Shown here piece by piece: positions 37,264-55,643 of a stretch of DNA of 64,000 nucleotides. Both the position numbers and the translations under genes were made by a program. The notes below the pieces were generated by a model that was given only the letters and a program-made list of their open reading frames with translations, made no database searches and was not told the DNA's origin. The first letter of the stretch is position 1, and every line of letters begins with the position of its first letter. This stretch comes from Anaerolineales bacterium (GTDB lineage: Bacteria > Chloroflexota > Anaerolineae > Anaerolineales > DRMV01), in contig JALWJZ010000103.1 of the NCBI GenBank assembly GCA_026996855.1, positions 20,047 through 84,046 of the forward strand, given 5' to 3'.

Positions 37264-37372
37264 GGGGCGCACCGGGAAAAAGCCGCGTCCGCGGCATCTT
37301 CCCGGTGCGCCCCATAGGGCAGGGGTGTCCTGGGAAAAAGCCGCGTTCGCGGCATCTTCCCAGGACACCCCT
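37264..37372 (-). other. Twin long hairpins with a shared core (candidate single-strand signal or structured RNA)
   Basis: Two ~50-nt stem-loops with near-identical core and different, fully paired outer stems. Confidence 0.6.
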
Positions 37373-39799: not shown

Positions 39800-40184
39800 G
39801 AATAGCCTGCTCCTTGGGTATCTGTCCCAGGCTCCAATCTCTCACGGCTTTGGCGGCCTGCAAGACGGCCTGTCTCTCCGGTTCCAGGGCTTCCACGCGT
39901 TGCTCATTCACCAATCGAAGCGTTTCCTCGTACAGCCATTGGCCGCGCACGGCGTCAGGGTTCCCGTCCAAAATCTCGGCCAGAGCCTCGGTTTGGCGGC
40001 GCAGCGCCGCCAGTTCGCGGTCATAGGCCCGTTCCTCCTTGAGGATTTGCCACTCCGTCCAGGTCAACAGTCGGTCTGGTGCCAGGGACTTCCCCAAAGC
40101 ACCCAGGCCCACCATCACCGCCAGGACAATCAGAAAAGCGCCTATGAGCATAGGCATTCGTTTGACTTCTAATTCAATCTCCAT
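39762..40184 (-). CDS. Membrane-anchored hypothetical protein
   Basis: N-terminal TM, helical body, AGGAGGT RBS. Confidence 0.7.
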   Translation of the reverse strand: MEIELEVKRMPMLIGAFLIVLAVMVGLGALGKSLAPDRLLTWTEWQILKEERAYDRELAALRRQTEALAEILDGNPDAVRGQWLYEETLRLVNEQRVEALEPERQAVLQAAKAVRDWSLGQIPKEQAIHALEQAVRELEK

Positions 40185-40247
40185 GAGACCACCTCCTGGG
40201 GGCCGCCCCTGGCAGGCCGCCTAAGTGACGGCCCCAGGCGGCAGTGC

Positions 40248-40382
40248 TCAGGGCAAAAGGCGGGCGAGGGCGAGGAACCGAGCCAAAACCCACCGGTTCA
40301 CAGCCTGGCCAACTTTGAGAATGAAGAGCAGTTTGAGAACCAGCAGCCAGGCCATCATGCTGAGGGATGCAGAGCCGCGCAT
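40248..40382 (-). CDS. Small hydrophobic peptide (44 aa), possible minor pilin
   Basis: GGGAGGT RBS; MRGSASLSMMAWLLVLKLLFILKVGQAVNRWVLARFLALARLLP. Confidence 0.45.
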   Translation of the reverse strand: MRGSASLSMMAWLLVLKLLFILKVGQAVNRWVLARFLALARLLP

Positions 40383-40465
40383 GGGAAACCTCCCACAAGT
40401 GATTTCCCCATGCCGCGACGAAGTGCCGGGAGCATGGGTACCCAAATGCTCCCGGCACTTTTCCC

Positions 40466-40894
40466 TCAGCGCGTGCGGAACGTGCCCTCGGCATCCGCCC
40501 AACCCTCCAACGCGACCGTACGAGGAAGAAACCACAGAGACACTTGACCACGACTCACACAACGAATGCGACGCTCACCTACAGGATGGGCTGCAAAAGA
40601 AACCCCCTGCAAAACAGGGGCACCCTGGAGGGTGCGCAGGAACATGGCACGCCCCACCTGCAAGGCTCGCGGGGACCATTTCATGCGTTTCACGCCTGTT
40701 TGTTTGAAAGCATCCACACCGTCCTCAAAAGCCACTTGAACGGCTGCCTCGCATCCCGCGTCCGTGGCCACCTGCAATCGGGCGTCAGCGTAAAGCAAGC
40801 GGAGGCCGTCAATGACCAACGCCATCAACGGCATGAGGACGAAGCCCAGGAGAAGGGCCGTCCATGCCAGCGACGAGGCTCGAACGGGGCGCAT
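40466..40894 (-). CDS. TadG/Tad-domain pseudopilin
   Basis: Hydrophobic N-terminus, then LVIDGLRL..ARLQVATDAG. Confidence 0.75.
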   Translation of the reverse strand: MRPVRASSLAWTALLLGFVLMPLMALVIDGLRLLYADARLQVATDAGCEAAVQVAFEDGVDAFKQTGVKRMKWSPRALQVGRAMFLRTLQGAPVLQGVSFAAHPVGERRIRCVSRGQVSLWFLPRTVALEGWADAEGTFRTR

Positions 40895-41295
40895 CACCAT
40901 CCCTCCTTGCGGAAGGTGGCCCTGGCCTGGCCATGAAAATCCGACATGTTCACGCCGAACCAAGAGGCCAGGCCCTTGAAGTAGTTGGGCACGGTGAAGT
41001 CTACGATGACCTGAACCTCACCGCCTCGTTCGGACGCCGCGACGACTCGAACGCGGTATTGCCCTACCGGGGCCACGGCGATGCGCTGCATGGCCGCCTG
41101 ACGTGCGAGAGCGGCCGGATTCTCCTGCGCCACGGAACCCATGCGGGCACCGTAGTTGGCCGCATTGGACGCCAGCAACCCCGCGTAGCCAAAAAGGGCC
41201 AGGTTGAAAAGCCCTATGGAGAGCAACAGAAGCAGCGGGTAGGTAAAAGCGGCTTCTTCCAATTCCCCGCGGCGTTTACGCCACCATCGCCACAT
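40894..41295 (-). CDS. tadE: TadE-family pseudopilin
   Basis: RRG|ELEEAAFTYPLLLLL...AANYGARMG. Confidence 0.8.
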   Translation of the reverse strand: MWRWWRKRRGELEEAAFTYPLLLLLSIGLFNLALFGYAGLLASNAANYGARMGSVAQENPAALARQAAMQRIAVAPVGQYRVRVVAASERGGEVQVIVDFTVPNYFKGLASWFGVNMSDFHGQARATFRKEGW

Positions 41296-41310
41296 CCCAA
41301 TCTCACCTCC

Positions 41311-41490
41311 CTACAAACGGCTGGCCAGAGATTGGAAGGTCTGACTGACACGGCTCCCCAGCGCATACACACCAACTACGGCCACCAAGACGAAGAAAGC
41401 AATGAGTAACGCCTTTTCATCCAGTTCCCCGCGACGCTCTTCCAGCCAAAGGCGCATTTTGATAACCTTCAACATCAGACACTCGACCAT
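41311..41490 (-). CDS. flp: Flp-type pilin, atypical (59 aa)
   Basis: EERRG|ELDEKALLIAFFVLVAVVGVYALGSRVSQTFQSLASRL; AAGGAGGT RBS; own promoter. Confidence 0.78.
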   Translation of the reverse strand: MVECLMLKVIKMRLWLEERRGELDEKALLIAFFVLVAVVGVYALGSRVSQTFQSLASRL

Positions 41491-41520
41491 ATCATTACCT
41501 CCTTCAGGCGGATTTAAAGC

Positions 41521-41591
41521 AAAAAGGCGTACTACCCCTCCGGTAGTACGCCAGTCATTTCGCATTATAGAGCCATGGACGCAATGGTCAA
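41521..41591 (-). promoter_or_regulatory. Sigma70-type promoter plus leader terminator upstream of flp
   Basis: TTGACC-16-TATAAT, then GGCGTACTACC/GGTAGTACGCC stem and T5; homologous to 53152-53228. Confidence 0.75.
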
Positions 41592-41954
41592 GACCAAAGC
41601 GCCTAAAAAGAAACCCGGAAGAGCGGGAAACGGCGACCGAAACCCCTGGCCAGCCCACCACAGCATAGCACCCAACCATGCACCAATGGGCAAAACGGGA
41701 TTAACCAGACTCATAGCGCTCAGGGTCAGCACATCCGCCGAACCCATCCAAGAACGAAGAAGAAGGCCCAAACCAAACCACACCACAGCCCATATCCAGG
41801 CTTCCAGTCCTCCCATAGAGAGACGAAGGGTTATGGCCCAAAACAACATCCCGGCAAGCGTCCATGCATTCACCTGCCGCGAACGCAGGTCCTGCCAGGC
41901 GGCCAGGCCCAACAAGACCAGAAACCCTACCATACCCCAGGCAGAAGCCGCCAT
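41565..41954 (-). CDS. Prepilin peptidase (A24, TadV/CpaA-type)
   Basis: WQDLRSR and MGSAD catalytic Asp motifs, PFPALPG; short multi-TM protein. Confidence 0.78.
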   Translation of the reverse strand: MAASAWGMVGFLVLLGLAAWQDLRSRQVNAWTLAGMLFWAITLRLSMGGLEAWIWAVVWFGLGLLLRSWMGSADVLTLSAMSLVNPVLPIGAWLGAMLWWAGQGFRSPFPALPGFFLGALVLTIASMAL

Positions 41955-42517
41955 CGTACCCTCCGGGCGTACTCGGTGTAACCGTCCAAAATCCCCTCTT
42001 CCCACTGAATACGCAGCAACACCGTTACGGTGAGCACCGCGGCCAGAGCCAGATTGCGCAGGGAGGGGTTCAGAAGCACAACCGGTATCAAACTCAGGGT
42101 TTCCCCAGCATACATAGGGTGTCGAATGAACCGATAAGGGCCGTGTGTGACCAAACCCCGGTCCGCAGGTGCAACACCAAAAGCCGCACCCAGGGAAACC
42201 ATCCCCCACAAAGCCAGGCCCACACCCACCAGGCCCAATGCTTCAGCCCACCATGTCGTATGACCCGCTTCCAATCCCTGGGGGAGAACAGCGTCTATCC
42301 ATGCGATGACCTTCTGATACCAGGGAGCGTCTCTCCGGGCCGCCCGCCGATGCCAAAGGCGGAAGGCAGCCAATCCGCCGTGCAAAGCCACGGCCAAGGA
42401 CAACCAATTTCCCATATCTACAAACCGGCGCAGATTGATGCCGGCCAGCAGAACCAGGAAAGCAGTACCTATCAGGGTGAGGCAAACATGGAGAACACGG
42501 GAGCACCCAGTACCCAT
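41927..42517 (-). CDS. Isoprenylcysteine carboxyl/phospholipid methyltransferase family membrane protein
   Basis: LVTHGPYRFIRHPMYAG...RIQWEE..L..Y..Y...V.WRLLPG; start uncertain. Confidence 0.85.
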   Translation of the reverse strand: MGTGCSRVLHVCLTLIGTAFLVLLAGINLRRFVDMGNWLSLAVALHGGLAAFRLWHRRAARRDAPWYQKVIAWIDAVLPQGLEAGHTTWWAEALGLVGVGLALWGMVSLGAAFGVAPADRGLVTHGPYRFIRHPMYAGETLSLIPVVLLNPSLRNLALAAVLTVTVLLRIQWEEGILDGYTEYARRVRWRLLPGVW

Positions 42518-43332
42518 AGAAGGAACCCCACGAAAGGCATGAAGTAAAAGATAGCCGCGGCCAACACCAACTGGCTGTCCAGTTTCTTGGCCCGTGCCAT
42601 AACGTCTGTGCGATATTCACGAGCCATAGCGCGGGCAATTTCCGACATGAGAAAAGCCCCCTGGGTACCCTTCCGGGCCACCATGTCCAATTGGACGGCC
42701 AGCATCAAAATTTCCGGCACACCGCGGGAAAACTTGCGGGCATAATCCAGGAACATGCCCACCGCAGGGGGACGGGAAAACAGCGGACGTCCGGTTTTCC
42801 GAGCCTGCTCGACGGCCTCAGCAATGAAACGGTGAAGCGGGCCTGAGAGTTGCGCGGCGCGTTCCAAAGCCAGGTCCGGTGATGCGCCCGCGGCCAGTTC
42901 CGCAGCCATGACAGTTGCCAATTCAGGAAGTTGACGTTTAGCCAATCGCTTCGCGCGGGAGGCCCGGTTTCGTACTTTGAGGATGGGGTAATACGTGAGA
43001 AGCAGGGGCAGAAACCAGGCCAACCCTTTTGGAATGCCAACAACCAGGAAAAGGGCCAGATACCCAAATGCCGTCATGACCGCGGCTTCCCCAAGGACGC
43101 GGTACGCCGTCACGTTTTTCAAGTACCCGGCTCGCTGCGCCCAGGTCAAATCCTCTCGGATACGCTTGAGGGAAAACGGGAAACGCTTGGCCAACCAAGC
43201 CCCAAATTGCTCCAAGGTACCCCCTTCTCTTCCGCGGTATTCAGCCAAAATCGCGGTCGGACGGCGAGATAGTCCCAAATCCAAGGCCCAATATACGGCC
43301 AGGCCCAAAGCAAACGCTGCGAAGAAAGTCAT
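42472..43332 (-). CDS. tadC: TadC-like (T2SSF-domain) platform protein
   Basis: RQLPELATVMAAELAAGASPDLAL; TM pattern; follows TadB. Confidence 0.75.
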   Translation of the reverse strand: MTFFAAFALGLAVYWALDLGLSRRPTAILAEYRGREGGTLEQFGAWLAKRFPFSLKRIREDLTWAQRAGYLKNVTAYRVLGEAAVMTAFGYLALFLVVGIPKGLAWFLPLLLTYYPILKVRNRASRAKRLAKRQLPELATVMAAELAAGASPDLALERAAQLSGPLHRFIAEAVEQARKTGRPLFSRPPAVGMFLDYARKFSRGVPEILMLAVQLDMVARKGTQGAFLMSEIARAMAREYRTDVMARAKKLDSQLVLAAAIFYFMPFVGFLLWVLGAPVFSMFASP

Positions 43333-44249
43333 AGGCTCACCTCCCGAATGAGGCCCTGGATATAGAAATAGCCCACCACCCCCCAGACCACGAGAAGCAC
43401 CAAAAGTACCTGATTGAACGGCTGGTAAAACAGGGCTTTGGTCTGGGGGTTGGACATGATGACAACAAGACCGGTACCCAAGGCCAACAAAATCACTCGG
43501 ATAGTACCCCATGCACCGGCCGCCGCGGCCATGGCCTCGGCGCGGGCGTCCAGGATGTGGGTGAGGTTCTCGGCCACCATGTTGAAAGCCTCTACATAAC
43601 CCACGCCGCCGGTTTCCCACACGCGCTTCAATTCCCGAAGGAACAGCACCAGAGTTGGCGAAAGCATTTCGGCTTCCTGGATGGCTTGTTGAAAAGCGCG
43701 GCCGGGTTCCCGGTGAAGCCGATGGACGAAGGTCTGCATCCACTTCCTCAGCGGGCTGTTCTGCTCCATGCTTTCGAGCACTTCATCCAGGGCTTGCAAA
43801 AGATTGGGGGTGATGGGAAGGGTGGCAGCCAGGCGGGTCAGCACCAAAGGGAGTTCCTTTTCCATGCGCTGACGAAAGTCCTTCCACTTGGTCTCTACCC
43901 AGGTGCGCACCAGGAAATAAGATGCTACAGGGGATGCAAGGACAAAGACAGGTGGTAGAAACACCGCGGCCAGACTGCCCACCACGACGGTGGAAGCCAG
44001 AACACCAAACCAAAAGGCCCTGTTTTCCCAACCTTTGACGTCCAGGCCCAGGGATTGGAAAGCCAGGCGAATGGGCAACGCCCGGTCAACAATCAACGTT
44101 TTTTGGTCGTCACGGCTTCGCATGTATTGCCGCAAGGTAGTCTGCACCCGGTGGCTATTCCAAAGGGATAGTCCCAAATCCAAAGCCCAGTAAACAGCCA
44201 GGCCCAAAGCAAACGCCACTATGATGGGTATAACCAAATCCATCATCAT
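43329..44249 (-). CDS. tadB: TadB-like (T2SSF-domain) platform protein
   Basis: KELPLVLTRLAATL..NLLQAL, ETGG; follows CpaF. Confidence 0.75.
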   Translation of the reverse strand: MMMDLVIPIIVAFALGLAVYWALDLGLSLWNSHRVQTTLRQYMRSRDDQKTLIVDRALPIRLAFQSLGLDVKGWENRAFWFGVLASTVVVGSLAAVFLPPVFVLASPVASYFLVRTWVETKWKDFRQRMEKELPLVLTRLAATLPITPNLLQALDEVLESMEQNSPLRKWMQTFVHRLHREPGRAFQQAIQEAEMLSPTLVLFLRELKRVWETGGVGYVEAFNMVAENLTHILDARAEAMAAAAGAWGTIRVILLALGTGLVVIMSNPQTKALFYQPFNQVLLVLLVVWGVVGYFYIQGLIREVSL

Positions 44250-45472
44250 CGCCGCTCCCTGGTGAGGGGTTCCATGGAAGTGTCGCCGTAACGGTACACC
44301 TGGCGGAACTTCACATCTCCGCCTTTGAAACCTGCAACTTCGTGAACGGCCAGCACCCGCCGTTTGCCGTCCGCCCAACCCACGGTGACCACCACATCTA
44401 TGGCCTGCTCGAAGATGGCTTTGGCGGCCTCCATACGCACCTGGGCGTCGGCGAACATGATGACGGCCAGACGAAACACCGCGTGCTGGGGACTTTCCGC
44501 GTGGAACGTAGACAGACCGGGGTGGTCGGACATCTGGGCGCGGAACAGGGCCAGGGCTGCATCGCCCGTGCGCACCTCACCCACGATGAGCCATTGCGGT
44601 GCCATGCGCATAGCATCGTCCACGCCGTCCTTCAGGGTGTACGGCGGTACCTGGCTTCCGGGCATGGAAGACCGGGCTTCGAGCGTGACCACATTGGGAT
44701 GCCGGAGCCAGATTTCTTCAGGGTCCTCAATCTTCACCACGCGTGCATCGGCCGGGATGCCCCCGTTGGCCAGGGCACTGAGGAAAGTGGTCTTGCCCGT
44801 GGCCGTGCCACCAATGACCAAAACCCGCAGTTTTCGCCCGACCGCGGCGCATAAAGCGTCCATGACAAAATCCGGGGCCATTTCCCAGGCAATGATGTCC
44901 TGGGGCAGGATGGGTCGGGCTTCAAACAAACGAATGTTAATGGCGGGGTACCCTTCCCCTGGGGCCAACACAGGATGCACGATTTTTACACGTGCGCCCC
45001 CCGTTCCATGGAACCGAGGCAAACGAGCGTTTACTGAAGGATTGGCTTCGTTCAAAGCCCGCCCCGTAGGGGCCAACAGGGCTTCCACAGCGCGCCAGGC
45101 TTCTTCTACTGTGGGGCGATAATCCCACGGCTCGAAATGCTCAGCCCCTTTTCGCAACAACCACACCGAGCCATCAGGGTTCAAAGCAATCTCGGTCAGG
45201 TCGTTTCGAGAAGGAGGCAATAGCGCACCAAGAAAACCCATCCCGCCCACTTGAGCGGCTGCTCGGCGCGCCATATCTTCCACCAACACCGGCCCCGCGG
45301 TTAGACCCTTTTCTGCAAGGAGGCGGTGCACTTCTTGGCGGGCCTCTTTCAAGAGGGCTTCTGTATCCCGAACCACGGCAAGGGGTAGCCGTCCTAACCG
45401 TTCCACAGCTTCCCGAACGATGTTGTCCTGGTGCTCTGTGGTTAGCGTTTGGGCAAATTGCGTCCAGGTCAT
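44246..45472 (-). CDS. cpaF: CpaF/TadA pilus assembly ATPase
   Basis: GGTATGKTT, IEDPEE, DAMRMAPQWLIVGEVR, STFHA. Confidence 0.9.
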   Translation of the reverse strand: MTWTQFAQTLTTEHQDNIVREAVERLGRLPLAVVRDTEALLKEARQEVHRLLAEKGLTAGPVLVEDMARRAAAQVGGMGFLGALLPPSRNDLTEIALNPDGSVWLLRKGAEHFEPWDYRPTVEEAWRAVEALLAPTGRALNEANPSVNARLPRFHGTGGARVKIVHPVLAPGEGYPAINIRLFEARPILPQDIIAWEMAPDFVMDALCAAVGRKLRVLVIGGTATGKTTFLSALANGGIPADARVVKIEDPEEIWLRHPNVVTLEARSSMPGSQVPPYTLKDGVDDAMRMAPQWLIVGEVRTGDAALALFRAQMSDHPGLSTFHAESPQHAVFRLAVIMFADAQVRMEAAKAIFEQAIDVVVTVGWADGKRRVLAVHEVAGFKGGDVKFRQVYRYGDTSMEPLTRERR

Positions 45473-45491
45473 GACTCCCTCGCTTCCGGTC

Positions 45492-46754
45492 TCACGTTCG
45501 CACCTTTACCCGCACCGGTCCCATCCGATACTCCTGGGCTGCGTTGGATGCGGCTGCGACCGCGGGCATGGGCGGAACCAATGCATTGACAAGTCCCTGA
45601 ATAGCCTTTCGAAACTCCCCCACACCCAGTGGGGACTGACGTCGGTCCTGGGCCACGGCCACCGCGGACAGGAAAGGAATGGTCGCGGCCAAAGGCGGGA
45701 AAGTGGCCCCCGACACGTCCCGCAGCATCTCTGTTGCGGCCCGGTGCCATTCTTTGGGCGCGATGCGTCCGCCCACCATGTTCAGGGCCACCAAGATGTG
45801 ATTCGCGGGCAGGCGGTGCTCGCCGGACACGCGTTCGGTGACCGTGCGGTAGGCTTCCACAGTGCTCAGGATGTCGGCCAGAGAAGGTCTGGCTACCAAC
45901 ACCAAATGAGTGGCCGCAGTGATGGCTTGGGCCGCGATATTCGCGTTAGGGGTGTCCAGGACGAGCAGGGCATACCCTGCCCTGGCCGCGGTGCTCACCA
46001 ACGCAGACAGCGAAGCCGGGTTTTCGGTAGGCAATGCGGAAAAGCGGGCCTCGGTGAGTACATCCGGGAACCCCCCTAACACGGCCAGGCCGTTCAGCAT
46101 TTGCAAACTTTCCTGCAACCCTTCTACCGAGGGATTGGCCATCCAGGATGTGATATTGGGTTCAGGCTTCAAGCCCAGAACCAGGGGGTTGGTGTCCGGG
46201 GTATCCAGGCCCACCAACATGGTGGGCACGCCGCGAGTTGCGGCTTCCAGGGCCACTGCCGCGGCCAATGTGCTTTTCCCCGTACCGCCTGCATGATTCC
46301 AGAACATCACCACGCGAAAACCCACCACCAACGCGGGGCCAGATGGGGCCGCTTGCGGCGAAACCTCTGCCCCACCCCATCCCCCTGTGGTTGTCATGAC
46401 TGCGGCGGCCACAATGCGGTCGGGAAGTTTGTGCAGGTCTTCGAAATCCCCTATATGCACCTCCCGCACCCTGGGCATCTGGGCAAAGGCCTGACGCATC
46501 TCCGCGGCCTGGGGCGGCAGGACCAGAAAGACCTCCGCCTGTACGGCCTGCAGGAACCGCTGCAGGGGGTCCGGCCCACCGAAGAGGGTGGCATCCAGGA
46601 CCAAGGCCTGGGGGTTGTAGGCCATCTTGGATTGCAGGTCTTCGACGCTCAGGGCCACCGAGACCACATGGAGCCGGTCGTCGTCGCTGAGCACCGGCCC
46701 CCATACGTTGAGGCGAGGCATGGGAGCGGCAATCAAAACCGTGACCTTGGTCAT
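45492..46754 (-). CDS. CpaE/TadZ-like protein (pseudo-receiver plus MinD-like ATPase)
   Basis: N-terminal receiver-like fold, AGGTGKST, LVLDTP. Confidence 0.75.
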   Translation of the reverse strand: MTKVTVLIAAPMPRLNVWGPVLSDDDRLHVVSVALSVEDLQSKMAYNPQALVLDATLFGGPDPLQRFLQAVQAEVFLVLPPQAAEMRQAFAQMPRVREVHIGDFEDLHKLPDRIVAAAVMTTTGGWGGAEVSPQAAPSGPALVVGFRVVMFWNHAGGTGKSTLAAAVALEAATRGVPTMLVGLDTPDTNPLVLGLKPEPNITSWMANPSVEGLQESLQMLNGLAVLGGFPDVLTEARFSALPTENPASLSALVSTAARAGYALLVLDTPNANIAAQAITAATHLVLVARPSLADILSTVEAYRTVTERVSGEHRLPANHILVALNMVGGRIAPKEWHRAATEMLRDVSGATFPPLAATIPFLSAVAVAQDRRQSPLGVGEFRKAIQGLVNALVPPMPAVAAASNAAQEYRMGPVRVKVRT

Positions 46755-47599
46755 TTGCTTTCCTCCGCTTGCTCGGATGGTTGCGGAAACACCACCATAG
46801 CGGGCACGAAGAAGCCCGAAGTCCGAATGCTGACCTCAGCATTCGGGGGAACCAAAAAGAGGCTCAAGCGCGCGCCATCCGACATTTGCAAAGCAGCCAG
46901 CAATTCCACGGGGTTCACAGGCATGGTGACGTTTTCCGCTCCGAACGTTTGAAACTCGTACACCACATTCACCGGCTCTGCAGGTACGGCCACCACCACT
47001 GCCCCCTCTTTAGATTTCATGGAGCCAATACTCCCCAAAAGGGGGTCCTCACTGCCCGTTTCTTGCAAAGCCTGGAACTCCGGCGATACGTATAGCACCC
47101 GCAACCCTTCAATGACCACCTTAGCGTAATCCCCTGAGACCAGGGGCGTTTGCGCTTCCCCTGCTTCTTCCACAGGGAAACGGGCCAGGATGGCCTGGAC
47201 AAAAGTCTGGTCGTCAATAAGAGCGACCACGCCCACCTTGTCACCGGGCTTGAGCACACCCGCGACGCCGGAGGCATCGTCCACCTGGATGGCCATCGCA
47301 CGCTCGTCGGGATTGAGGTCGAACTGCCATGGTCCCAGATGGGCCTGACGAATCACATCCCCCGCGCTCCGTGGTACGGCCAGGGTCTGGCCCAAGACGC
47401 TCTCGATGGATGTCAATGCGTCTTCAGGGGCCAGGTTTTCGGGCATGGCTTGCAGGGTCACGTCTCCTTCCGAGATGACCTGACCGGGGGCCAGGTCGCG
47501 AGCGGCGACCACAACTTGAACGGTTTGAGTCTGTGAAAGCAAGTACACCACCGCGGCCACCAACAGAGCGATGCCAATGCGCAGCGCTTTACTCAACAT
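46751..47599 (-). CDS. cpaB: Flp pilus assembly protein CpaB/RcpC
   Basis: VVVAARDLAPGQVI (SAF), ERAMAIQVD..SGVAGVLKPGDKV. Confidence 0.88.
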   Translation of the reverse strand: MLSKALRIGIALLVAAVVYLLSQTQTVQVVVAARDLAPGQVISEGDVTLQAMPENLAPEDALTSIESVLGQTLAVPRSAGDVIRQAHLGPWQFDLNPDERAMAIQVDDASGVAGVLKPGDKVGVVALIDDQTFVQAILARFPVEEAGEAQTPLVSGDYAKVVIEGLRVLYVSPEFQALQETGSEDPLLGSIGSMKSKEGAVVVAVPAEPVNVVYEFQTFGAENVTMPVNPVELLAALQMSDGARLSLFLVPPNAEVSIRTSGFFVPAMVVFPQPSEQAEESK

Positions 47600-47777
47600 G
47601 GCTTTTCTCCTTCTTCACGGTCTGTTTGGCAATCAACAAAAGCGTCAAGGCTTCTTCCAGGGATTTCCAATCCACGTCCAGCACATGCTGGTTTTGGTCC
47701 ACCACCACAACCAGGGCCCGGTTGCCTTGCAGTAAACGCTTCACGGTCTCTTCCAGAACTCGTTTCACATCGTTCAT
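47589..47777 (-). CDS. Hypothetical protein (62 aa)
   Basis: GAGGT RBS, coupled overlaps at both ends. Confidence 0.6.
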   Translation of the reverse strand: MNDVKRVLEETVKRLLQGNRALVVVVDQNQHVLDVDWKSLEEALTLLLIAKQTVKKEKSHVE

Positions 47778-48043
47778 GGCGCCACCTCGTTTGCACTGGT
47801 TGCCGTCATCGTGGGGCCGGGTGTCACGGTTGGCGTGTACACCCAATGTGGAGGCGGAGTGACCCCCTGCCACCATCCCGAAAGGGTGGGTGTGGGTGTG
47901 GCCGTGGAGGGCACGGTCACCATCCATGCCGTAGGCGTTGGGGTTCTCCCGCCATTTCCACTCCAGGACAGACCTCCCAGGGCCATAAGCATGGCCAGCA
48001 GAAAAACCAACAGCACCAGGAACCCCATGACGCTTTGCTTCAT
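47774..48043 (-). CDS. Small membrane-anchored Pro/Thr-rich protein
   Basis: N-terminal TM, TPTPT repeats, GGAGG RBS. Confidence 0.65.
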   Translation of the reverse strand: MKQSVMGFLVLLVFLLAMLMALGGLSWSGNGGRTPTPTAWMVTVPSTATPTPTLSGWWQGVTPPPHWVYTPTVTPGPTMTATSANEVAP

Positions 48044-51000
48044 ATCCGTATCCTCCCCAGTCGCGCAGCGATTTCCGTGTCGTCTGGCTCCGGTACGTCC
48101 AGCATCAAGGGTTTGAAAAGCACGGGGCGCTGATAAGCCCGGTCGAAGGTGTATGGGAAGCGACCAATTTGCAGGCCAATGGGCATATCGGTGAGGAAGC
48201 GCCGCCATTCCTCATCGCGGAAACCTTTCTCCGAGAAACCCAGGGCGGCCAGCACGATGTCCTTGTCCCTGGGGTTCTTGAGGAAGGCGATGCACAGGTT
48301 GTTGCAGGAACTGATGATGTCCTGGGGAATGAGGGAAGGGGCCTGGGTGATGACGTGCAAACGCACGCCGTACTTCCGCGCATCCCGGAACATGTCTCCG
48401 AAACGCTGGGCCGCAGAGATGCCCTCCTCGGCCTCTTCAAAGGACGCGGCCCCAAAAATCTTGTTGGCCTCTTCGAAGAAAATTTGCAACAACGGCTCAT
48501 CGGGACCGGCCAGGTGGCGCACCCGGCGGGTCATCATGTCCATGTAGAGGTGCCAGCCCAACCATCCCAGCAGGAAAGCCTTACCGAAGTCGTCCAGGAA
48601 GGAGCCGCCTTCCACAATGAGGATGCCCCAGGGCCGGGCCATTTCCTCCACGGGCACCACGTCCGGCCCCGGCTCGAACATCCGGGACGCCGCTCCCTGA
48701 ACCAGGGGGTTGAGCCGGTACAGAATGCCCTCCAGCACCCCCTGAAGCATGGTGTCCCGCGGAGGCACGGTAGTCAGTTTTTCCTGGACCTGACGGTACA
48801 GGTCAGCCAGGCCCACCTTGCTACTTCGATGCACCGCGATGGCTTGCTTTTGTTCCCAGGTGAGGTCGCTCAGGGGTGTTCCCGCGGAAACACCCACCAG
48901 GTCGGCCTCGTCGGGCTGCACCCTGCCCCATTTGGGGTCGGTGCGGATTTCGGGGTCGTCCACCAGAACCCCGGCCCGCAGGTACACTTGTCGCAACGCG
49001 TCCAGAAGTTCCTGTTTCTGTCGGCGCACGCCCAGGCGGGCGATGGAACCAAAGATGTCCGCAAAGGCTCGCCACTGGGTTTCGGGGTCAATGTTGCGAC
49101 CGATTTGGAGGGGGTTCCAGCGCAGGGGCCGGGGAGCATCGGGCCAGAGTTGACGAATGTCCACGTGCCCTTCCAGGCCGGGCGCGTTGAGAAGCGCCCG
49201 CCAGCCCGCGCCGAAGTCCAGCACCACGGTGCGGGTGCGCCATTTGAGCGTGGTCTCATAGGCCATGCGGATGGCCGATACCGATTTCCCCCACCCCGTG
49301 TCCCCTGCAAACAGGGTATGGAAAAGCCGCCGTTGGTCCAGGCGCACAGGCGCGGTGGTGAGTTCGTGGGTAGTGGGCGAAACCTGGTGCCCCAGCACCA
49401 CATCGCCGGGCATGTCGGGATAGAACCCCATGCCCTCCGGGATGGGTGCCATGACGGTCACCGTGGACCCTTCTTCGATGAGCGCGGGTGCGGTATATGC
49501 GGCCACCTGGCCCGCGGTGAGTAGGGTCGTGTACTTGGTCCAGAGTTTTCCACCAAAGGGGTCGTTCTCCGCAGGTCCATGCCAGGGCAGAAAAGCCAGG
49601 GCGTGATAGCGCAGGGGTTCCACGTCCTGGGGTTCTGGATGCACGGTAAGCACGGGTGTGGGCACGTTCGGCCCATGGAAGGCCTGGGGAACTAGGCTTT
49701 CCACCGCGGCTGCGGCCTCTTCGTCGTCCACCCATATCAGGGCCTCGGTCATAAAGCCGCCCTCCGCGCTGGCCTGGTTGAGGATACCCTCCAGTCCCCG
49801 CAGGATTTCCGTGAGGCGCATGGCCACGTCGTCTTCGGTTTGCCAGGAACGCCCAATGCTGACGCCGGGCACCAGGCCCGCGCTCAGGCCCGAAACCCAT
49901 CCGTATCCACCGGCATGGCCTGCCGCGTTGGACACGCCTTTGCTCTCTGCATGGGACAGCCCCCACCCCTCACTTTTCGTATCCGCTTGCGACCAGGTGT
50001 CGGATTGGCTTCTTGTGGTGGACCAGAACCGGGACACGGACACGGATTTCCCTTTCGTATGTGCGTGGCTGTGGGTGACACTGGTTGTATCCGCCGTCCC
50101 CCAGGTTTCTGACCGTCCCGTGGTATGCGCGGTGCCATGGGTCACCGTGGTACTGGAAAAGGTGCCCGATGTTGTCGTCACTCCCCACGTACTCGCACCG
50201 CCCACAGAAGCGCTCACCGTATCGGAGGTGGAAGTGGTATTGGCATCACTTTGCATGGTACTGATGGAGCCCGACAACGATGCACTCCGTGACGCGCTCT
50301 GGGTACCGGACCAGCCGACTTCTCCAGACACATTGGCGTTCCATCCACCATTCACGCCTGCCCCTAACGTTCCAGGTACACCCAGGCTCACGTTGCCTCC
50401 GGCATGATAACCTGCACTCCCCCCTACACTGGCGCTTTGTGTAAAGGATTGTCCCACCGTGAGGCTTTGGCCTACGGTTATGCCTTGGGTGGTGCCGGAA
50501 GTATGCGTTTTGGCCGTCCCCGTTGTATGGGCACCACCTATGGACCAGCTCGAAGAGCCTCCTGCGCTATGACCCACAGAGCCACTTGTTCCCTCAGTAT
50601 GGCTGACGGAAGTGCTGTGGGTCGTGCTTTCAAAGGTGCCCACGGAATGGCTCACCGTATGTGCCCGTCCGTGCGCCACGCCTGTGGTGTCTGCTGAACT
50701 GTGGGTAACGGTCACGCTTCCACCAGTCGTATGGGCCACGCCCTCTGTGTGGGCATAGCCCTCAGTATGGGCCTGGCCCCACTGCCGGGATACCCCGTCC
50801 GTGTGGGCCACACTTTCCGCACGTCCTGCCATGCCCGAGTGGGAAAGGGTGCGACCCAGGGCGGCCATGATGGGCACGCCCAGGGAAAAGCCGATACTGA
50901 GGGCCCCTCGCTGCCGCGAGGCCACGATGGACGCCAGTTGCGCCACTTCTACCAGGGTTTTGGACAGATAACGCCGGGGCAGGGCCTCGGCCACGGTCTG

Positions 51001-51591
51001 AAACACGAAGTTCTTGCGCAACTTGGCCAGGCCCCGGAAAAGGATTTCGTTCTGTTCCGCGGCCAGGTCATCGGGTGTGGGATTGGGTAGAGAACCGTCT
51101 TCTCCGTACAACCCCCGCCGGGTCTCCCGCGGATCCGGGAAACCCAGCAGCACCAGGGGACGGCGTGCGGACATGATGAACCGAAGATACCACTCCAGGT
51201 ACTCCGTCTCCGGAGGCACCGTTCGAGACTGGGGGTAGTTTGCCAGGGTCGCCAACACCGCGGCCAGCTGTTCCCGGGCTCGAGCGATGGCTTCATCCTT
51301 CGTGTCCGCGGTGGCCGCGGCGCCGTAGAACTGCACGATGCCCACGTAACGAGGCCGAAACATGCCCATGGCGCTGTATACGAAGTTCACCCCCGCGTTG
51401 TACATGCCCCGGATGGCGGCCCACTGCTTTCCCAGAAGGTCGTAGTCTTCCTTGGCGGCGATGGGGATGGCGTGAAGCCGATGCAGGGCTACTGCCCTGT
51501 ACAACGTTCGTCCTTCGGGAGTGGCGATGTGGAACCACAGCGCGCCCACTTCACCGCCGTTGTCATGTACACCTGAAGCCAGAATACACAT
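48040..51591 (-). CDS. VirB4/HerA/FtsK-superfamily ATPase with long Ser/Thr/Gly/His-rich insertion (1183 aa)
   Basis: Walker A FAGDTGWGKS, VVLDFG, WNPL, Walker B IFFEEAN, RKYGVRLHVITQ; GAGGAGG RBS. Confidence 0.85.
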   Translation of the reverse strand: MCILASGVHDNGGEVGALWFHIATPEGRTLYRAVALHRLHAIPIAAKEDYDLLGKQWAAIRGMYNAGVNFVYSAMGMFRPRYVGIVQFYGAAATADTKDEAIARAREQLAAVLATLANYPQSRTVPPETEYLEWYLRFIMSARRPLVLLGFPDPRETRRGLYGEDGSLPNPTPDDLAAEQNEILFRGLAKLRKNFVFQTVAEALPRRYLSKTLVEVAQLASIVASRQRGALSIGFSLGVPIMAALGRTLSHSGMAGRAESVAHTDGVSRQWGQAHTEGYAHTEGVAHTTGGSVTVTHSSADTTGVAHGRAHTVSHSVGTFESTTHSTSVSHTEGTSGSVGHSAGGSSSWSIGGAHTTGTAKTHTSGTTQGITVGQSLTVGQSFTQSASVGGSAGYHAGGNVSLGVPGTLGAGVNGGWNANVSGEVGWSGTQSASRSASLSGSISTMQSDANTTSTSDTVSASVGGASTWGVTTTSGTFSSTTVTHGTAHTTGRSETWGTADTTSVTHSHAHTKGKSVSVSRFWSTTRSQSDTWSQADTKSEGWGLSHAESKGVSNAAGHAGGYGWVSGLSAGLVPGVSIGRSWQTEDDVAMRLTEILRGLEGILNQASAEGGFMTEALIWVDDEEAAAAVESLVPQAFHGPNVPTPVLTVHPEPQDVEPLRYHALAFLPWHGPAENDPFGGKLWTKYTTLLTAGQVAAYTAPALIEEGSTVTVMAPIPEGMGFYPDMPGDVVLGHQVSPTTHELTTAPVRLDQRRLFHTLFAGDTGWGKSVSAIRMAYETTLKWRTRTVVLDFGAGWRALLNAPGLEGHVDIRQLWPDAPRPLRWNPLQIGRNIDPETQWRAFADIFGSIARLGVRRQKQELLDALRQVYLRAGVLVDDPEIRTDPKWGRVQPDEADLVGVSAGTPLSDLTWEQKQAIAVHRSSKVGLADLYRQVQEKLTTVPPRDTMLQGVLEGILYRLNPLVQGAASRMFEPGPDVVPVEEMARPWGILIVEGGSFLDDFGKAFLLGWLGWHLYMDMMTRRVRHLAGPDEPLLQIFFEEANKIFGAASFEEAEEGISAAQRFGDMFRDARKYGVRLHVITQAPSLIPQDIISSCNNLCIAFLKNPRDKDIVLAALGFSEKGFRDEEWRRFLTDMPIGLQIGRFPYTFDRAYQRPVLFKPLMLDVPEPDDTEIAARLGRIRI

Positions 51592-51610
51592 TACTGTTTC
51601 CTCCTCTTTT

Positions 51611-51673
51611 GGCCAATAGGCCTTAACACCCCTTAAGCCCGGCCTATAGGCCCTGCAGGAAGGCCTATAGGCC
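51611..51673. promoter_or_regulatory. Array of three GGCCTATAGGCC-type palindromes upstream of the ATPase gene
   Basis: Copies at 51611 (1 mismatch), 51641 and 51662. Confidence 0.45.
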
Positions 51674-52219
51674 CTTTCCGCGCGTGCGCACCTGGGCGAT
51701 GAGGTCCTCCGGTGTTTGCGGCAACGGTGGATGGGCAAACAGGGCCTGGGCCAGCATAGCGAAGAAACCCACGGGGTATGCGTACAGAGCAATGGCGGCC
51801 AGGGCTTCCAGGTACGATGCCCCGCCAGCGAGCCAATCCTGTCCGGTGCGAGCCAGGACCGAGCGGTAGAGCATCACACCCAGGGCAATAAGTACGTACA
51901 GGGCCAGGCCCTGGGTGATGCGCCAGTACAGGGCCTGGGGGTTGAACCGTTCCAAACGCCAGGCCAGCCATCCCCCCAGGGCCATGGCCCCCATCATCAG
52001 GCCCACCACCGTAGGAGCAAACACGGCTGTAATCAACATGACGGCCAATACCCCGGCCATCCAGCGTCGCCGAAGCGTGTCCTGCTGTTGTAGCAACAAA
52101 GGTGCGGCCGCGGCCAGGAGCAACCACAGCCGCCAGGCCTCCAGCACCGCATACACCACAGCCAAAAAACCGTTGAGCACCCAAAGGCCGGGAAGCCACC
52201 AGGGATTTGGCATGGTCAT
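51665..52219 (-). CDS. Multi-pass membrane protein
   Basis: About five hydrophobic segments; ATGA overlap. Confidence 0.75.
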   Translation of the reverse strand: MTMPNPWWLPGLWVLNGFLAVVYAVLEAWRLWLLLAAAAPLLLQQQDTLRRRWMAGVLAVMLITAVFAPTVVGLMMGAMALGGWLAWRLERFNPQALYWRITQGLALYVLIALGVMLYRSVLARTGQDWLAGGASYLEALAAIALYAYPVGFFAMLAQALFAHPPLPQTPEDLIAQVRTRGKGL

Positions 52220-53127
52220 CCCTCACCATCCCACCAGACGAGAGGAGGCCCTAAGTAGCGTGGATGGAAAGACCAAGCCTGACCTCCCCCATCGAAACGT
52301 GGGTGCAGCACGGGAACTGGAGCACCTAAATGCTCCTGACCAGCGCACCCTGTACCCAAACAAGTGATGGGACCAGGAAAACCTCGACCGGGGTCCCATC
52401 CACGACCGGGGTCATGTCCGGACTCACAAGCCAGGCTTAGGCAGGTATCCACTGGTTCGGATGAGCCGCTTTGGGAACCCCCTCCCAAGGTGGTGTCCAA
52501 CAGCCACACCCGGACGTAGAACGTCCGAGTTTTACTCTGCCCGTCCCGCTGGCGGGTATGCACGCGAATTTCATACACGCCGGGGTCCACAGGGAGGAAA
52601 TGGGCGTGCATCTCCGCAGTCTCGCCCAGCACGTGGTGTTTCAAAGTCCAGGATGGTTCCGGGTTCTTGGGCTTTGCACCCGGATACCACTGCCCCAGGG
52701 TACCCGTAATCCAAGCGCGGCTGGGAGCAGTCAACCGGATGTATTCCACATCCAGCGACACGATGTCCGAGCGGTTTTCCCCGCGCCAGCACCCGTTGTT
52801 CTTGGCTCCGCCTCGCGCTTTGACCAGGATGGTCACCCCTTCCCGCTCGGCATCCTGCCCTACCACCACGGGATAAGGCGGTGCCACCCCTTCCAACCAC
52901 AACGCAGGTTCGTCATAAGTGGGGTCACATGGGGGCGGAGGCGGCGGGGAATCGTTATTTGTATTGTCGTCATCCTCGCACAGAAAAGCCCAAGGGCCAA
53001 CACAATCGCGAAAGTCTGTTATACCTGAATCAGGATTACCCGGCACACCTGGGTTGAAAACCGGAGGCATGACGCTGGCCATGGAGACCAAGCCCAACAG
53101 AGTTAGCACCACCAACCATCGCTTCAT
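52216..53127 (-). CDS. Secreted Cys/Pro-rich protein (possible adhesin)
   Basis: Signal peptide MKRWLVV..., paired Cys, beta-rich core, DPGRG repeats; GGGAGGT RBS. Confidence 0.65.
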   Translation of the reverse strand: MKRWLVVLTLLGLVSMASVMPPVFNPGVPGNPDSGITDFRDCVGPWAFLCEDDDNTNNDSPPPPPPCDPTYDEPALWLEGVAPPYPVVVGQDAEREGVTILVKARGGAKNNGCWRGENRSDIVSLDVEYIRLTAPSRAWITGTLGQWYPGAKPKNPEPSWTLKHHVLGETAEMHAHFLPVDPGVYEIRVHTRQRDGQSKTRTFYVRVWLLDTTLGGGSQSGSSEPVDTCLSLACESGHDPGRGWDPGRGFPGPITCLGTGCAGQEHLGAPVPVLHPRFDGGGQAWSFHPRYLGPPLVWWDGEG

Positions 53128-53151
53128 GAGCAACCTCCCATTTTTGGGAAT

Positions 53152-53228
53152 AAAAAAGGCGCACGAACCCTCTCATGGGTTCGTACGCCAATCACTTCGC
53201 ATTATAGAGCGCCCCTTTGGGGCGTCAA
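53152..53228 (-). promoter_or_regulatory. Sigma70-type promoter plus leader terminator at the head of the transfer-like operon
   Basis: TTGACG-16-TATAAT, 13-bp stem with one G-U pair, T6; homologous to 41521-41591. Confidence 0.75.
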
Positions 53229-53346
53229 GGGGCGGGGCCAAGTTTGGCCCCGCTCAAAAGGCGCTCTCCCATTCCTTTGCGGGCCTGTTCGGCCCGCCCC
53301 CTGAGCCAAGGCCCTTTTGGGCCGCAGGCGTGGGGGGCGAGGCCGG

Positions 53347-53691
53347 TTAGGCCCGCCCATCGCCCGCAGGCCGGTAGGCCGAGGACGACAAAGGCACGGG
53401 CTCCCCAAAGAAACTGACATGACGCACCGCTACATAGGTGCTGGGATTTTCCCCCTGCCATAGGGTAACCAGCCTGCCATAGAGCACTACCTGAATCCGA
53501 CATGGGCCATAGGCTTCAAAATAGGCTCGTGCCAATTCCGCACCCCGTCCCATCAGCACCACAGGATGCCGCCCACCCAGATAAGGTTTGCCCGTATCCA
53601 CATGGGTGCGGAGCGCCAGGCGTCCGTCCACCCTCTCGAAAACATTGCGAATCTCAAGCCAGCCTTGCAGCACCACCACGTTGTTGCTCAT
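53347..53691 (-). CDS. Second SSB-like OB-fold protein
   Basis: NNVVVLQGWL...HPVVLMG..AE...VVLYGRL...VAVRHVSF pattern. Confidence 0.55.
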   Translation of the reverse strand: MSNNVVVLQGWLEIRNVFERVDGRLALRTHVDTGKPYLGGRHPVVLMGRGAELARAYFEAYGPCRIQVVLYGRLVTLWQGENPSTYVAVRHVSFFGEPVPLSSSAYRPAGDGRA

Positions 53692-54581
53692 AGCGCCACC
53701 TCTTCCACGGCCCGGGCCAGGTCCTGGGCCGAGGGTTCCACGTACCGCCGGGTCGTGTCCAGGCTCTTGTGGCCCAGGATACGAGCCACTTTTTCCAGCG
53801 AAACCCCGGCATCCACCAGGGACTTGGCAAATGTGTGCCGAAGCACGTGAGGGGTGGCTTCTACACCCGCTTCCCGAGCCACGCGAGCCACGGCCCGTTG
53901 AACCGTGCGCACGGTCAGACCATCCCGGACCGCCCATACTTGATCGCCTTCGATGTCAGCATCACGTCGGGTTGTCTTCCATCGGCGTAACGCATCCCGC
54001 GCGGCTTTGTTCAGGGGCACCACCCGCTGCTTGTCCCCTTTGCCCCGTACCAACAGGTGACCCTTGCGCTCGCCGAGCACGACGTCGGACCACCGCAGGC
54101 GAACCACTTCGCCAGCGCGCAAGCCCGTGTTCAGCAGGAACAGGGTGAGCAGGGCGTCCCGCTCGTACACCACCCACCGAACCGGATACCGCAGCCGGGC
54201 CACTTGCAAAATCCGCTCCGCAGCCCGCCGCAGGGCATACCGCTCTCGCTTGTCCAGCCATCGAAGGCCGGGCGGTTGCTCCCGGAGCCCAGGTACCCGT
54301 CGCGCGGGGTTTTCGGAAATCCGACCCTGATGCCTGGCCCAGTCCAGCCAGGCACGTACCGCGGCCAGACGACGGTTCACCGTCGCTGCCCGCAGACCTC
54401 GACGCTGAAGCCAATTGCGATATTCCCGCACATCGGACGGTGTGACCCTCTCAGGTTCCAGAGTCTCACCGTTGGTATGCTCGAACCAAACGGCAAACTG
54501 CTGCAAGTCCCGCACGTAGCCTCCCACAGTCACCGGACTGGCCTGGGCGCTGAGATGCCGGGCAAAGTCTTCAAAAGCCAT
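53688..54581 (-). CDS. XerC/D-like tyrosine recombinase
   Basis: N-terminal SAM-like domain, NTGLRAGE, GKGDKQR, HVLRHTFA, LGH, TRRY. Confidence 0.93.
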   Translation of the reverse strand: MAFEDFARHLSAQASPVTVGGYVRDLQQFAVWFEHTNGETLEPERVTPSDVREYRNWLQRRGLRAATVNRRLAAVRAWLDWARHQGRISENPARRVPGLREQPPGLRWLDKRERYALRRAAERILQVARLRYPVRWVVYERDALLTLFLLNTGLRAGEVVRLRWSDVVLGERKGHLLVRGKGDKQRVVPLNKAARDALRRWKTTRRDADIEGDQVWAVRDGLTVRTVQRAVARVAREAGVEATPHVLRHTFAKSLVDAGVSLEKVARILGHKSLDTTRRYVEPSAQDLARAVEEVAL

Positions 54582-54608: not shown

Positions 54609-55643
54609 TCATTGCACGTAAAGCGCCGCATACGGCGATTCTGTGTACTTACGCTCACGCAGGGCTTGCGAGGCCGTCCATGCCTCGCTTTCGTCAGGCA
54701 CCAGCCCCTGGGCCACCAGGGGCTGAAGTTTTTCGCCCAATACCCCCCACCAGCGCACCAGGTCATAGTGCTCATCCTTCGCCCGCACTTTCCCACGGGC
54801 CAGGTTCACCGCTGCGGCCACTGCGGGCTTTGCCAACTGACCCTCTTGCGCTTCCCGGAAGCACCGCGTGAACTCGGCCAGCACGTCCAGGCCCGTGACG
54901 CGGCCCTCGGTCAGGGCTTGCAGCACGGGTTCCCGAAGTTTTCGACTCGGAACCCCAGCCGCCCGGAGAAACGCGTCCCAGGCTTTGCGCTCGGCTTTGC
55001 CAGGAGGCTTTTCCAGGCGAGAAAAATCAAACTCAAAATCCTGTGTGTCTCCCCCTCCGTCGCCGAAGGCGGCGAAGCCGCCGAAGGCGACCTCCCTCTC
55101 CCTCTCCCCCACACCCCCTCTCCCTCTGGTCTGGTCTATATCTGTATCTGGTCTTAATCTGTTCTTCTTCTTATTCTTAAGGCGTGACACTTCTGGGACA
55201 CCCCTGTGACCATTGCGTGACGCCAGCGTGACATTAGCGTGACTATCGCGTGACTTTGGCGTGACATTACCGTGACTTTCAACTTCTTCGTCTTCTCCCT
55301 TCTCCTCTTCCCGTTCACGCTCGCGCTGACGCCGCTTGCGTTCGGCCACCTGGGCGCGAGTCACGCGCGCCTGTTCATCCTCATACCGAGCCACCAAAAT
55401 GCCCTCCTCCCCCACTTCCACAATGCCCGCCTGTACCAGGGTGTTCAAATGTGATTCAAATTCGTTTTGGGGAAGGCGCAGCATCCAGGCTACTTGCTCT
55501 CGCGTGCCTGGTATGAGTCCCCCTTGCTCATACCGAGCCGCCAGGGCGTAAAGTTTGAAATAAACAGCCTGAACCTCCAACGGCAACATCCCCAGTTGGG
55601 GGTCGTCCAGGGCCGAATCAACGTGCATTTTGAACCATTTCAT
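54609..55643 (-). CDS. Replication initiator (phage replisome-organizer-like N-terminus)
   Basis: MKWFKM..DP..LP..YFKLYALA wHTH start, ERKRRQRER linker, internal iterons. Confidence 0.75.
   Translation of the reverse strand: MKWFKMHVDSALDDPQLGMLPLEVQAVYFKLYALAARYEQGGLIPGTREQVAWMLRLPQNEFESHLNTLVQAGIVEVGEEGILVARYEDEQARVTRAQVAERKRRQREREREEEKGEDEEVESHGNVTPKSRDSHANVTLASRNGHRGVPEVSRLKNKKKNRLRPDTDIDQTRGRGGVGEREREVAFGGFAAFGDGGGDTQDFEFDFSRLEKPPGKAERKAWDAFLRAAGVPSRKLREPVLQALTEGRVTGLDVLAEFTRCFREAQEGQLAKPAVAAAVNLARGKVRAKDEHYDLVRWWGVLGEKLQPLVAQGLVPDESEAWTASQALRERKYTESPYAALYVQ
55184..55276. repeat. Iteron array, candidate origin of replication inside rep
   Basis: GTGAC at 55184, 55206, 55217, 55228, 55239, 55250, 55261, 55272 and GGGAC at 55195 (11-bp phase), next to an AT-rich tract at ~55136-55180. 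Confidence 0.8.

Follow-up and report, generated by a model that had tools for sequence, protein, structure and literature searches.

The 64,000-nucleotide (nt) stretch of Anaerolineales bacterium DNA analyzed here (contig JALWJZ010000103.1 of assembly GCA_026996855.1; hereafter the window, in whose numbering all positions are given) carries an integrated element of about 28.9 kb, and within it lie two short leaders, both read on the minus strand, in each of which a near-consensus promoter is followed almost at once by an intrinsic terminator. One leader (site A) precedes a putative pilin gene set, and the other (site B) precedes an 11.6-kb string of genes for pilus machinery and a HerA/CedD-like ATPase. 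We conclude that sites A and B are, by their sequence, paralogous copies of one leader module, that this predicted module is inherited across Chloroflexota integrative elements with a Tad-type pilus and a HerA-like ATPase, and that it is a conserved and hitherto unannotated module on the theme of promoter-proximal attenuation and antitermination. As to how it works, we tentatively favor, at somewhat less than even confidence, a reading in which read-through of the terminators is conditional and depends on a factor that would act on the stem's 5′ arm and on the short tail ahead of it.

Each site has the hexamers and spacing of a sigma-70-type promoter (elements near TTGACA and TATAAT, 16 to 18 nt apart). 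In our promoter scan, promoter A (41564 to 41591) consists of TTGACC at 41591-41586, a 16-nt spacer, and TATAAT at 41569-41564, and promoter B (53201 to 53228) consists of TTGACG at 53228-53223, again 16 nt, and TATAAT at 53206-53201; both match the consensus at 11 of 12 positions. From the −10 box to the stem there are 11 nt at either site (GCGAAATGACT at A and GCGAAGTGATT at B). The stem of site A (41552-41526) has 11 bp and a loop of 5 nt and runs into T5 (41525-41521), and that of site B (53189-53158) has 13 bp and a loop of 6 nt and runs into T6 (53157-53152). Both hairpins are among the terminator-like sites of the scan, have the layout of intrinsic (Rho-independent) terminators, and fold at −21.6 (A) and −26.6 (B) kcal/mol (z scores of −4.9 and −6.5; none of 200 shuffles was equally stable). 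With a start near 41558 for A and near 53195 (the purine, R, of an RTG) for B, the predicted short transcripts would span 41521 to 41558 and 53152 to 53195, each made of a 6-nt tail, the stem, and the T run. A ribosome-binding site (RBS) and start codon follow (GGAGG at 41502-41498 and ATG at 41490 for A; GGGAGG at 53139-53134 and ATG at 53127 for B), and the gap between T run and RBS is at both sites too small for another promoter. The TAA stop (41567-41565) of the upstream A24-like peptidase open reading frame (ORF) falls within the −10 box of promoter A, and the stem begins 12 nt past this stop codon, so that leader A doubles as the upstream operon's end, whereas site B is overlapped by no gene, the upstream ORF ending 119 nt ahead of the −35 box. 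When DNA contigs of four runs were compared with 41000-53500, none of the differences listed fell inside 41521-41591; site B was partly covered.

The two sites have in common a 28-nt block (41546-41573 and 53183-53210, minus strand) that is identical at 26 positions (93%) and spans the −10 box, the discriminator, the start region, and the base of the stem. The −35 surroundings, spacers, upper stems, and loops are unrelated between A and B, and the upper stems are nonetheless paired; one pair of the site B stem is a U-G pair, whose plus-strand equivalent is a C-A mismatch. A first-pass annotation of this DNA had described two homologous leaders of this kind, with an upper stem that differs but stays paired and a G-U pair valid on the minus strand only, and this description was borne out. 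When as many as 3 mismatches were allowed, a 24-nt pattern taken from the block matched sites A and B only, in the window and in the whole 2.56-Mb assembly alike, and none of 100 shuffles gave a match; scans for the exact pattern in 22 other genomes of the family, in viral contigs, and in genome contigs gave no match. Likewise, no further or antisense copy of the start-proximal sequence RTGAYTGGCGTAC was found in the window, and a look-alike tail at 38473-38493 was rejected as a further copy, since it falls within a coding region. The conserved halves of the stem are separated by 13 nt in A and by 18 nt in B, an inequality that fits an RNA stem better than it fits a dimeric DNA operator.

Conservation of this design extends well beyond the window. 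Relatives were gathered with the 1,250-amino-acid (aa) ATPase of the site B operon, which gave 13 loci from Chloroflexota/Anaerolineae metagenome-assembled genomes (MAGs) and 78 loci from metagenomes, all of them syntenic for the ATPase and Tad genes. At the operon head of relatives we found a near-consensus promoter, a leader of 73 to 151 nt with one or two hairpin/T-run units, and an RBS 23 to 70 nt past the last T run. Thirty-four loci reach 3.5 kb or more upstream of the start of the ATPase gene; the promoter-then-terminator design heads the operon in 31 of them (27 recognized automatically and 4, L008, L011, L032, and L048, by eye), and none was seen in the other three (L043, L047, and L063); retention on this scale excludes chance or accident. 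On the operon strand, a terminator lies within 130 nt of 33 of 71 promoter-like sites, compared with 1 of 25 on the other strand, and many relatives bear two terminators in tandem. Leaders of one class begin with AGAWTTTGCGCACC, those of a second class begin with CAGACGTGAACCCATAGCCC, and those of a third class share a conserved linker, GGATTCTATCTCAACCC. L018, the closest relative with a leader, has a window-type hairpin (ATTGGCGTAC...GTGCGCCTTTTT) and then a second terminator.

The first-pass annotation had proposed that a covariance model be built and searched against related elements and against Rfam. A model made from the hairpins of A, B, and L018 matched only A and B in their own genome and gave 9 matches (E values of up to 1) in 950 kb of related loci, every one of them in an operon-head leader and on the operon strand. 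In Rfam there was no family match at the gathering score for the window plus 14 related loci, and nothing meaningful appeared at E values of up to 1. In the alignment, which had been fitted to the model and has three rows from the reverse strand, 94.8% of cells in the aligned stems are paired, and double changes are found at 8 of 11 pairs. Taken at the level of sequence and predicted fold, the leader hairpins across relatives are homologous and go beyond mere analogy. Pilin leaders were located only in L069, L080, and L086. In L069 and L086, as in the window, the pilin leader and the operon leader have a common start-proximal sequence; this is RTGAYTGGCGTAC in the window, CAGACGTGMACCCAWAGCCC in L069, and AGACGTA in L086, which belongs to the broader class of L069. 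The 303-aa first gene of the window's operon is, for its part, nearly an orphan, with one close and one marginal homologue; it matches one other genome among 400 sampled in the phylum (locus L004, which is without a leader), and a search of viral contigs gave no match.

We also asked how often signals of these types occur elsewhere in the host genome. Over both strands there are 168 promoter-like sites matching at least 10 of 12 positions and 49 matching at least 11, many of the latter at tRNA genes, and a hairpin plus T run lies within 130 nt downstream of 26 of the 168. Twelve of these 26, read by eye, are tRNA genes in the order promoter, tRNA, terminator. Since the same promoter and terminator types flank host tRNA genes, consensus promoters and intrinsic terminators are probably working signals in this organism. 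A terminator was found within 80 nt of 21 of the 52 tRNA genes (median, −16.5 kcal/mol; range, −25.0 to −11.2 kcal/mol), and the leader terminators (−20.4 kcal/mol for A and −25.4 kcal/mol for B at 37°C) stand at the strong end of this set; at 65°C the leader hairpins hold −11.5 (A) and −14.1 (B) kcal/mol. Among the genome's promoter-like sites, only A and B have a stem starting 11 nt past the −10 box. As a separate observation, the tRNA genes of this genome have near-consensus promoters with a recurring RRRRTGCC start-region motif (for example, at 11561 of contig C96 on the minus strand, 10788 of C28 on the plus strand, and 42693 of C4 on the minus strand). Four other promoter-like sites have a hairpin and T run within 27 to 36 nt (6395 of C57, minus strand; 860 of C44, plus strand; 27016 of C93, plus strand; and 42920 of C103, minus strand, at about 22874 in the window); they are possible small RNAs or attenuators, and their sequence is unrelated to that of leaders A and B.

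The base of the stem, TGGCGTAC, contains a GCGYAC motif (Y, pyrimidine) that goes beyond what a plain terminator would require. The density of GCG[CT]AC is 6.4 per kb in 43 leaders and 0.70 per kb in the background (a nine-fold enrichment), and 12 of 44 leader hairpins have it in their 5′ arm, compared with 2 of 191 other terminator-like hairpins. Constraint of this kind is also seen in one class of leader, marked by GGATTCT. Its leaders are 84 to 96% identical, compared with 71 to 89% for the ATPase gene and 65 to 81% (or unalignable sequence) for the flanks. In six loci (L046, L049, L054, L058, L088, and L092), a first stem, CCTGC..GCAGG, co-varies to CCCGC..GCGGG and is followed by a linker, GGATTCT, that does not vary and by an A-tract/U-tract terminator that is a perfect palindrome, the whole being conserved more than the adjacent coding DNA. 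Folding of eight leaders of this class gave few compensatory changes in the first stem. The GGATTCT-class leader, which is absent from Rfam, is a candidate structured regulatory RNA. A hairpin after the T run that would hide the RBS was seen in both folds of the window's leaders and was rejected as a general feature; the Shine-Dalgarno sequence is paired in 23 of 39 leaders, where shuffles lead one to expect 28.7.

How, then, might the leaders work? In the reading that we favor, a strong housekeeping-type promoter would start transcription at the R of RTG and a canonical terminator would begin 6 to 7 nt farther on, so that by default polymerase would stop after an RNA of 38 to 46 nt. The pilin set (A) and the 11.6-kb machinery/ATPase operon (B) would be expressed solely by read-through, a dependence that follows from the absence of room for a promoter between T run and RBS. 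The target of a factor encoded by the element or by the host would be the nascent 5′ tail together with the stem's 5′ arm, UGGCGUAC (the GCGYAC motif), and its action would turn on pilin and machinery together. Given the minimal form of the leader, 6 nt plus a hairpin, such a factor would have to act on the terminator's 5′ arm or on polymerase at the promoter. We favor a conditional gate because consensus promoters and top-strength terminators are persistently kept together, because many relatives have tandem terminators, because the stem base is under sequence constraint and the two leaders of one element share sequence, and because the unequal spacing of the stem halves fits RNA. A single antiterminator acting on both leaders is plausible.

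Several results weigh against this reading. No match to Q-like, ANTAR, CAT/PRD, or KOW antiterminators was found among the element's ORFs, and the NusG family PF02357 matches only once in this 94.8%-complete genome, on another contig, which leaves no specialized NusG paralogue. With only about 6 nt ahead of the stem, no alternative fold can compete with the terminator hairpin, which dominates the predicted ensemble; neither the competing upstream structure of an attenuator or zipper nor the aptamer of a riboswitch is present at the window's leaders. Part of the shared block also seems to be commonplace. An RTG lies 5 to 7 nt past the −10 box in 13 of the 47 other sites matching at least 11 of 12 positions, compared with 10% of random positions, and the start regions of tRNA promoters provide examples (GGCAAGTGCC and AAGGGATGCC). 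The GCGAARTGA half of the block thus looks like ordinary promoter and start-site context, and since this context is common to other strong promoters, part of the block's conservation needs no special factor. What is left as the sole candidate recognition site is the stem base, and there GCGYAC is confined to some leader classes (18 of 43 leaders) and its counts overstate independence, because the leader loci are related. Finally, a very strong promoter with a leaky terminator after it would work equally well, and terminator A has an ordinary role in closing the upstream machinery operon. The first-pass annotation had proposed that the strong promoters yield short attenuated RNAs unless the conserved 5′ sequence is acted on by an antiterminator common to both leaders. 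The gating part of that proposal draws support from the anatomy, the homology, the RNA-strand hairpin, and the conservation in 31 of 34 loci; the part invoking a shared antiterminator on the conserved 5′ sequence is weakened by the ordinary character of the GCGAARTGA half and by the lack of a recognized antiterminator gene. We consider it unlikely that the leaders represent a new element-specific antitermination switch, one whose cis element would be the 6-nt tail plus the GCGYAC arm, which would be read by an unrecognized element protein or RNA rather than by Q, a NusG paralogue, or a nut-, put-, or canT-like RNA, and which would turn on the pilin and a DNA-moving Tad-pilus/HerA-ATPase machine.

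In the main alternative, the leaders would instead be constitutive, leaky attenuators or insulators that scale down strong promoters, block read-in, and leave a protective 5′ hairpin on the message with no dedicated factor. Terminator A would then serve primarily to close the machinery operon, and the pilin promoter would be fitted in just ahead of it, much as in E. coli, where the ampC attenuator is the frd terminator and the ampC promoter lies in the last frd gene (PMC6045580). The likeness is to site A, in that the promoter lies within the end of the upstream gene (its stop codon inside the −10 box and the stem 12 nt on) and one hairpin both ends an operon and attenuates a new transcript; the empty regulator and NusG searches and the generic context of part of the block also favor this explanation, which we regard as possible though somewhat doubtful. 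However, site B and the relatives' leaders have no such overlapping gene, and, unlike ampC/frd as there described, the element has two paralogous copies. In relatives of the L069 type, a separate terminator closes the upstream gene ahead of the promoter, and the tandem terminators of many relatives are similarly hard to accommodate. Moreover, a weak promoter would be a cheaper route to low output, yet a strong promoter and a top-strength terminator are kept together in 31 of 34 loci, and constitutive leakiness leaves the enrichment of GCGYAC unexplained.

Control could also be exerted on the DNA, with the shared block (−17 to +19) serving as a repressor or activator operator and the hairpin and T run being secondary. 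The block does overlap the −10 box and start site, which is common repressor territory, and the element encodes a MerR-like regulator and an anti-sigma-like protein. We nonetheless judge an operator improbable, given that the block is not palindromic, that its sole inverted repeat is the stem, with halves unequally spaced, that the upper stems co-vary so as to keep pairing and tolerate a U-G pair on the RNA strand only, and that T runs are conserved past the stems in relatives. A strong promoter with an efficient terminator is equally the anatomy of a small-RNA gene, and most such pairs genome-wide are RNA genes, so the 38- to 46-nt RNAs might themselves be the product, as trans-acting regulators or decoys, with the downstream genes expressed otherwise. 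This strikes us as very improbable, because those genes need read-through for lack of another promoter between T run and RBS, because in relatives the unit always sits 23 to 70 nt before the first operon gene, and because the RNA is nothing but hairpin save for its 6-nt tail. There is, finally, the RTG at the predicted start site of both leaders, which could open a leaderless mini-ORF (ATG ACT ... TAG in A; GTG ATT ... TGA, overlapping the start codon, in B) and so permit ribosome-mediated attenuation, since a ribosome there would cover the 5′ arm. We give this very little credence; the RTG context occurs at tRNA promoters too, where translation is unexpected, relatives have no start codon at that position, and the two putative peptides are unrelated outside the shared DNA.

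In its working the design resembles several known systems. In the late-gene control of lambdoid phages, a constitutive promoter, PR′, is followed by a nearby terminator, tR′, which is overcome by the Q antiterminator. The present leaders resemble PR′-tR′ in having a strong promoter on a mobile element, a short terminated RNA as the predicted default, and a long operon behind. They differ in that they are without a −10-like pause element (by eye, RTGAYTGGCGTAC contains no hexamer with A at position 2 and T at position 6), in that no Q homologue was found with Pfam or PHROGs, in that the host of the window belongs to the Chloroflexota, and in that the terminators start at +7 rather than tens of nucleotides or more downstream, as in lambda. 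Pilus genes, too, are elsewhere placed under intrinsic terminators; type IV pilin genes of Clostridioides are preceded by a cyclic di-GMP riboswitch, and the tad locus of Aggregatibacter has a termination cascade with terminators after the pilin gene. In contrast to the former, the 6 nt available here are too short for an aptamer and there is no Rfam match; in contrast to the latter, the window's terminators precede the pilin gene.

Among conjugative elements, the conjugation operon of pLS20 is subject to processive antitermination by conAn1/conAn2 (PMC8191782) and to a zipper-type attenuator, cATT, in which an upstream segment of a 456-nt leader pairs with the terminator as antiterminator (PMC13401043). 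The parallel lies in a leader with an intrinsic terminator directly before a long transfer-type operon on a mobile element, family-wide. The difference is that in the window the stem is preceded by only 6 nt, which allow no alternative fold. At its operon start pLS20 has the conAn1 protein gene and conAn2 RNA; the first operon genes of the window encode secreted or membrane proteins (a comparison by description only in the case of conAn). Tn916 has a terminator, T1, acting as an insulator and a cis-acting antiterminator RNA, canT (PMC11658703). There, as here, terminators would silence the genes of an integrated element, and the Tn916 device lets the element's own transcripts pass; canT, however, lies upstream as an RNA in its own right and reaches its terminators once the element has been excised and circularized, while in the window the promoter stands right next to the terminator in the integrated element. 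The leaders thus have the defining features of none of the lambdoid Q, pLS20, and Tn916 systems, conAn again being compared by description. Literature searches for this family of elements, and for leaders of this type before pilin genes, gave nothing.

The element that holds both leaders (33961 to 62854) lies in a tRNA-Ser gene. Its ends are marked by a 64-nt direct repeat (63 of 64 identical) of the 3′ part of tRNA-Ser(TGA), at 33961-34024 and 62791-62854. A tyrosine integrase (34047-34880) stands at the left end, by the repeat at 33961-34024, and a MerR/excisionase-like gene (62166-62735) adjoins the tRNA; between them are a Xer-type recombinase (53688-54581), a DnaD-like replication initiator, Rep (54609-55643), and ParA (56784-57818), and the element additionally encodes ParE and a zf-HC2 anti-sigma-like protein.

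The minus-strand genes behind leader B (41565 to 53127) were assigned with Pfam and related resources and by synteny with relatives. A secreted 303-aa protein (53127-52216) and a 198-aa membrane protein come first, followed by the 1,250-aa ATPase (51792-48040; NCBIfam NF033849, "serine-rich protein," 1,135 bits), which has a conserved N-terminal domain, a long middle rich in S, T, G, and H, and a C-terminal P-loop ATPase domain like that of HerA/CedD. Two small ORFs separate it from CpaB (47599-46751; Pfam SAF/RcpC), beyond which lie a CpaE-like ATPase (46754-45492; CbiA), CpaF (45472-44246; T2SSE), TadB/TadC (44378-42472; T2SSF, two genes, weak), a PEMT-like methyltransferase (42517-41927), and the A24-like peptidase (42209-41565), the last a weak assignment (Peptidase_A24, 20.1 bits, below the Pfam cutoff). 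Leader A is followed, also on the minus strand (38085 to 41490), by a 59-aa Flp-like pilin (41490-41311), a TadE-like protein (41295-40894; Pfam TadE), a Tad/TadG-like protein (40963-40466; Pfam Tad, weak), three ORFs without assigned function, and an SH3 protein (38630-38085). The 59-aa product has no Pfam match, and it is a reasonable candidate pilin in view of its G/ELDEKALLIA motif, hydrophobic helix, and position; the gene content is that of a Tad/Flp pilus locus, in which Flp is assigned by motif and position only. For the remaining uncharacterized ORFs, weak Pfam matches at E values of up to 5 gave nothing usable. The genes behind leader B had been called a transfer operon in the first-pass annotation. 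They are more exactly a Tad-type pilus/secretion cluster plus a HerA/CedD-like ATPase, and it is the ATPase and the mobile context that suggest DNA transfer.

Some further features of the region deserve mention. In all relatives, the 1,250-aa protein stands beside a Tad cluster, with 129 relatives in metagenomes, mostly Anaerolineae-type MAGs; NF033849 protein plus Tad cluster may together form a module, hitherto undescribed, for pilus-linked DNA translocation. Inside the adjacent TadB-like and TadC-like genes there is a 50-nt direct repeat (92%; 43268-43317 and 44167-44216), as would fit two paralogous T2SSF genes with a recently homogenized segment. At the end of an OB-fold gene (37624-37497, minus strand) is a third promoter matching 11 of 12 positions (TTGAAA, 17 nt, TATAAT), with a strong terminator 68 nt past it; an RNA of about 90 nt from this unit, a candidate small-RNA gene, would carry four CAAAGCC-like repeats. 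Pairing of this RNA in trans with the leaders was rejected, as 300 of 300 and 245 of 300 shuffles reached an equally low duplex energy. Close by, at 37264-37372, are two tandem, near-perfect palindromes of 50 nt, 82% alike and 58 nt apart from start to start, each with an inner GCCGCG..CGCGGC hairpin plus a T run, in the manner of REP-like (repetitive extragenic palindromic) nested hairpins.

To our knowledge, the Chloroflexota have almost no genetics, and for an uncultured member of the phylum the promoters and terminators of the tRNA genes provide a useful reference set. The leader itself is a compact, unannotated motif family, predicted to be cis-regulatory and absent from Rfam, in an element family in which a Tad-type pilus and a serine-rich HerA/CedD-like ATPase occur together with Rep, ParA, and an integrase. 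Should the terminators simply be leaky, they would make a tidy case of ampC/frd-type economy and of insulation of a mobile element. If, on the other hand, the leader is a regulated gate, it would offer a handle on when a widespread and undescribed family of Chloroflexota elements builds its apparatus.

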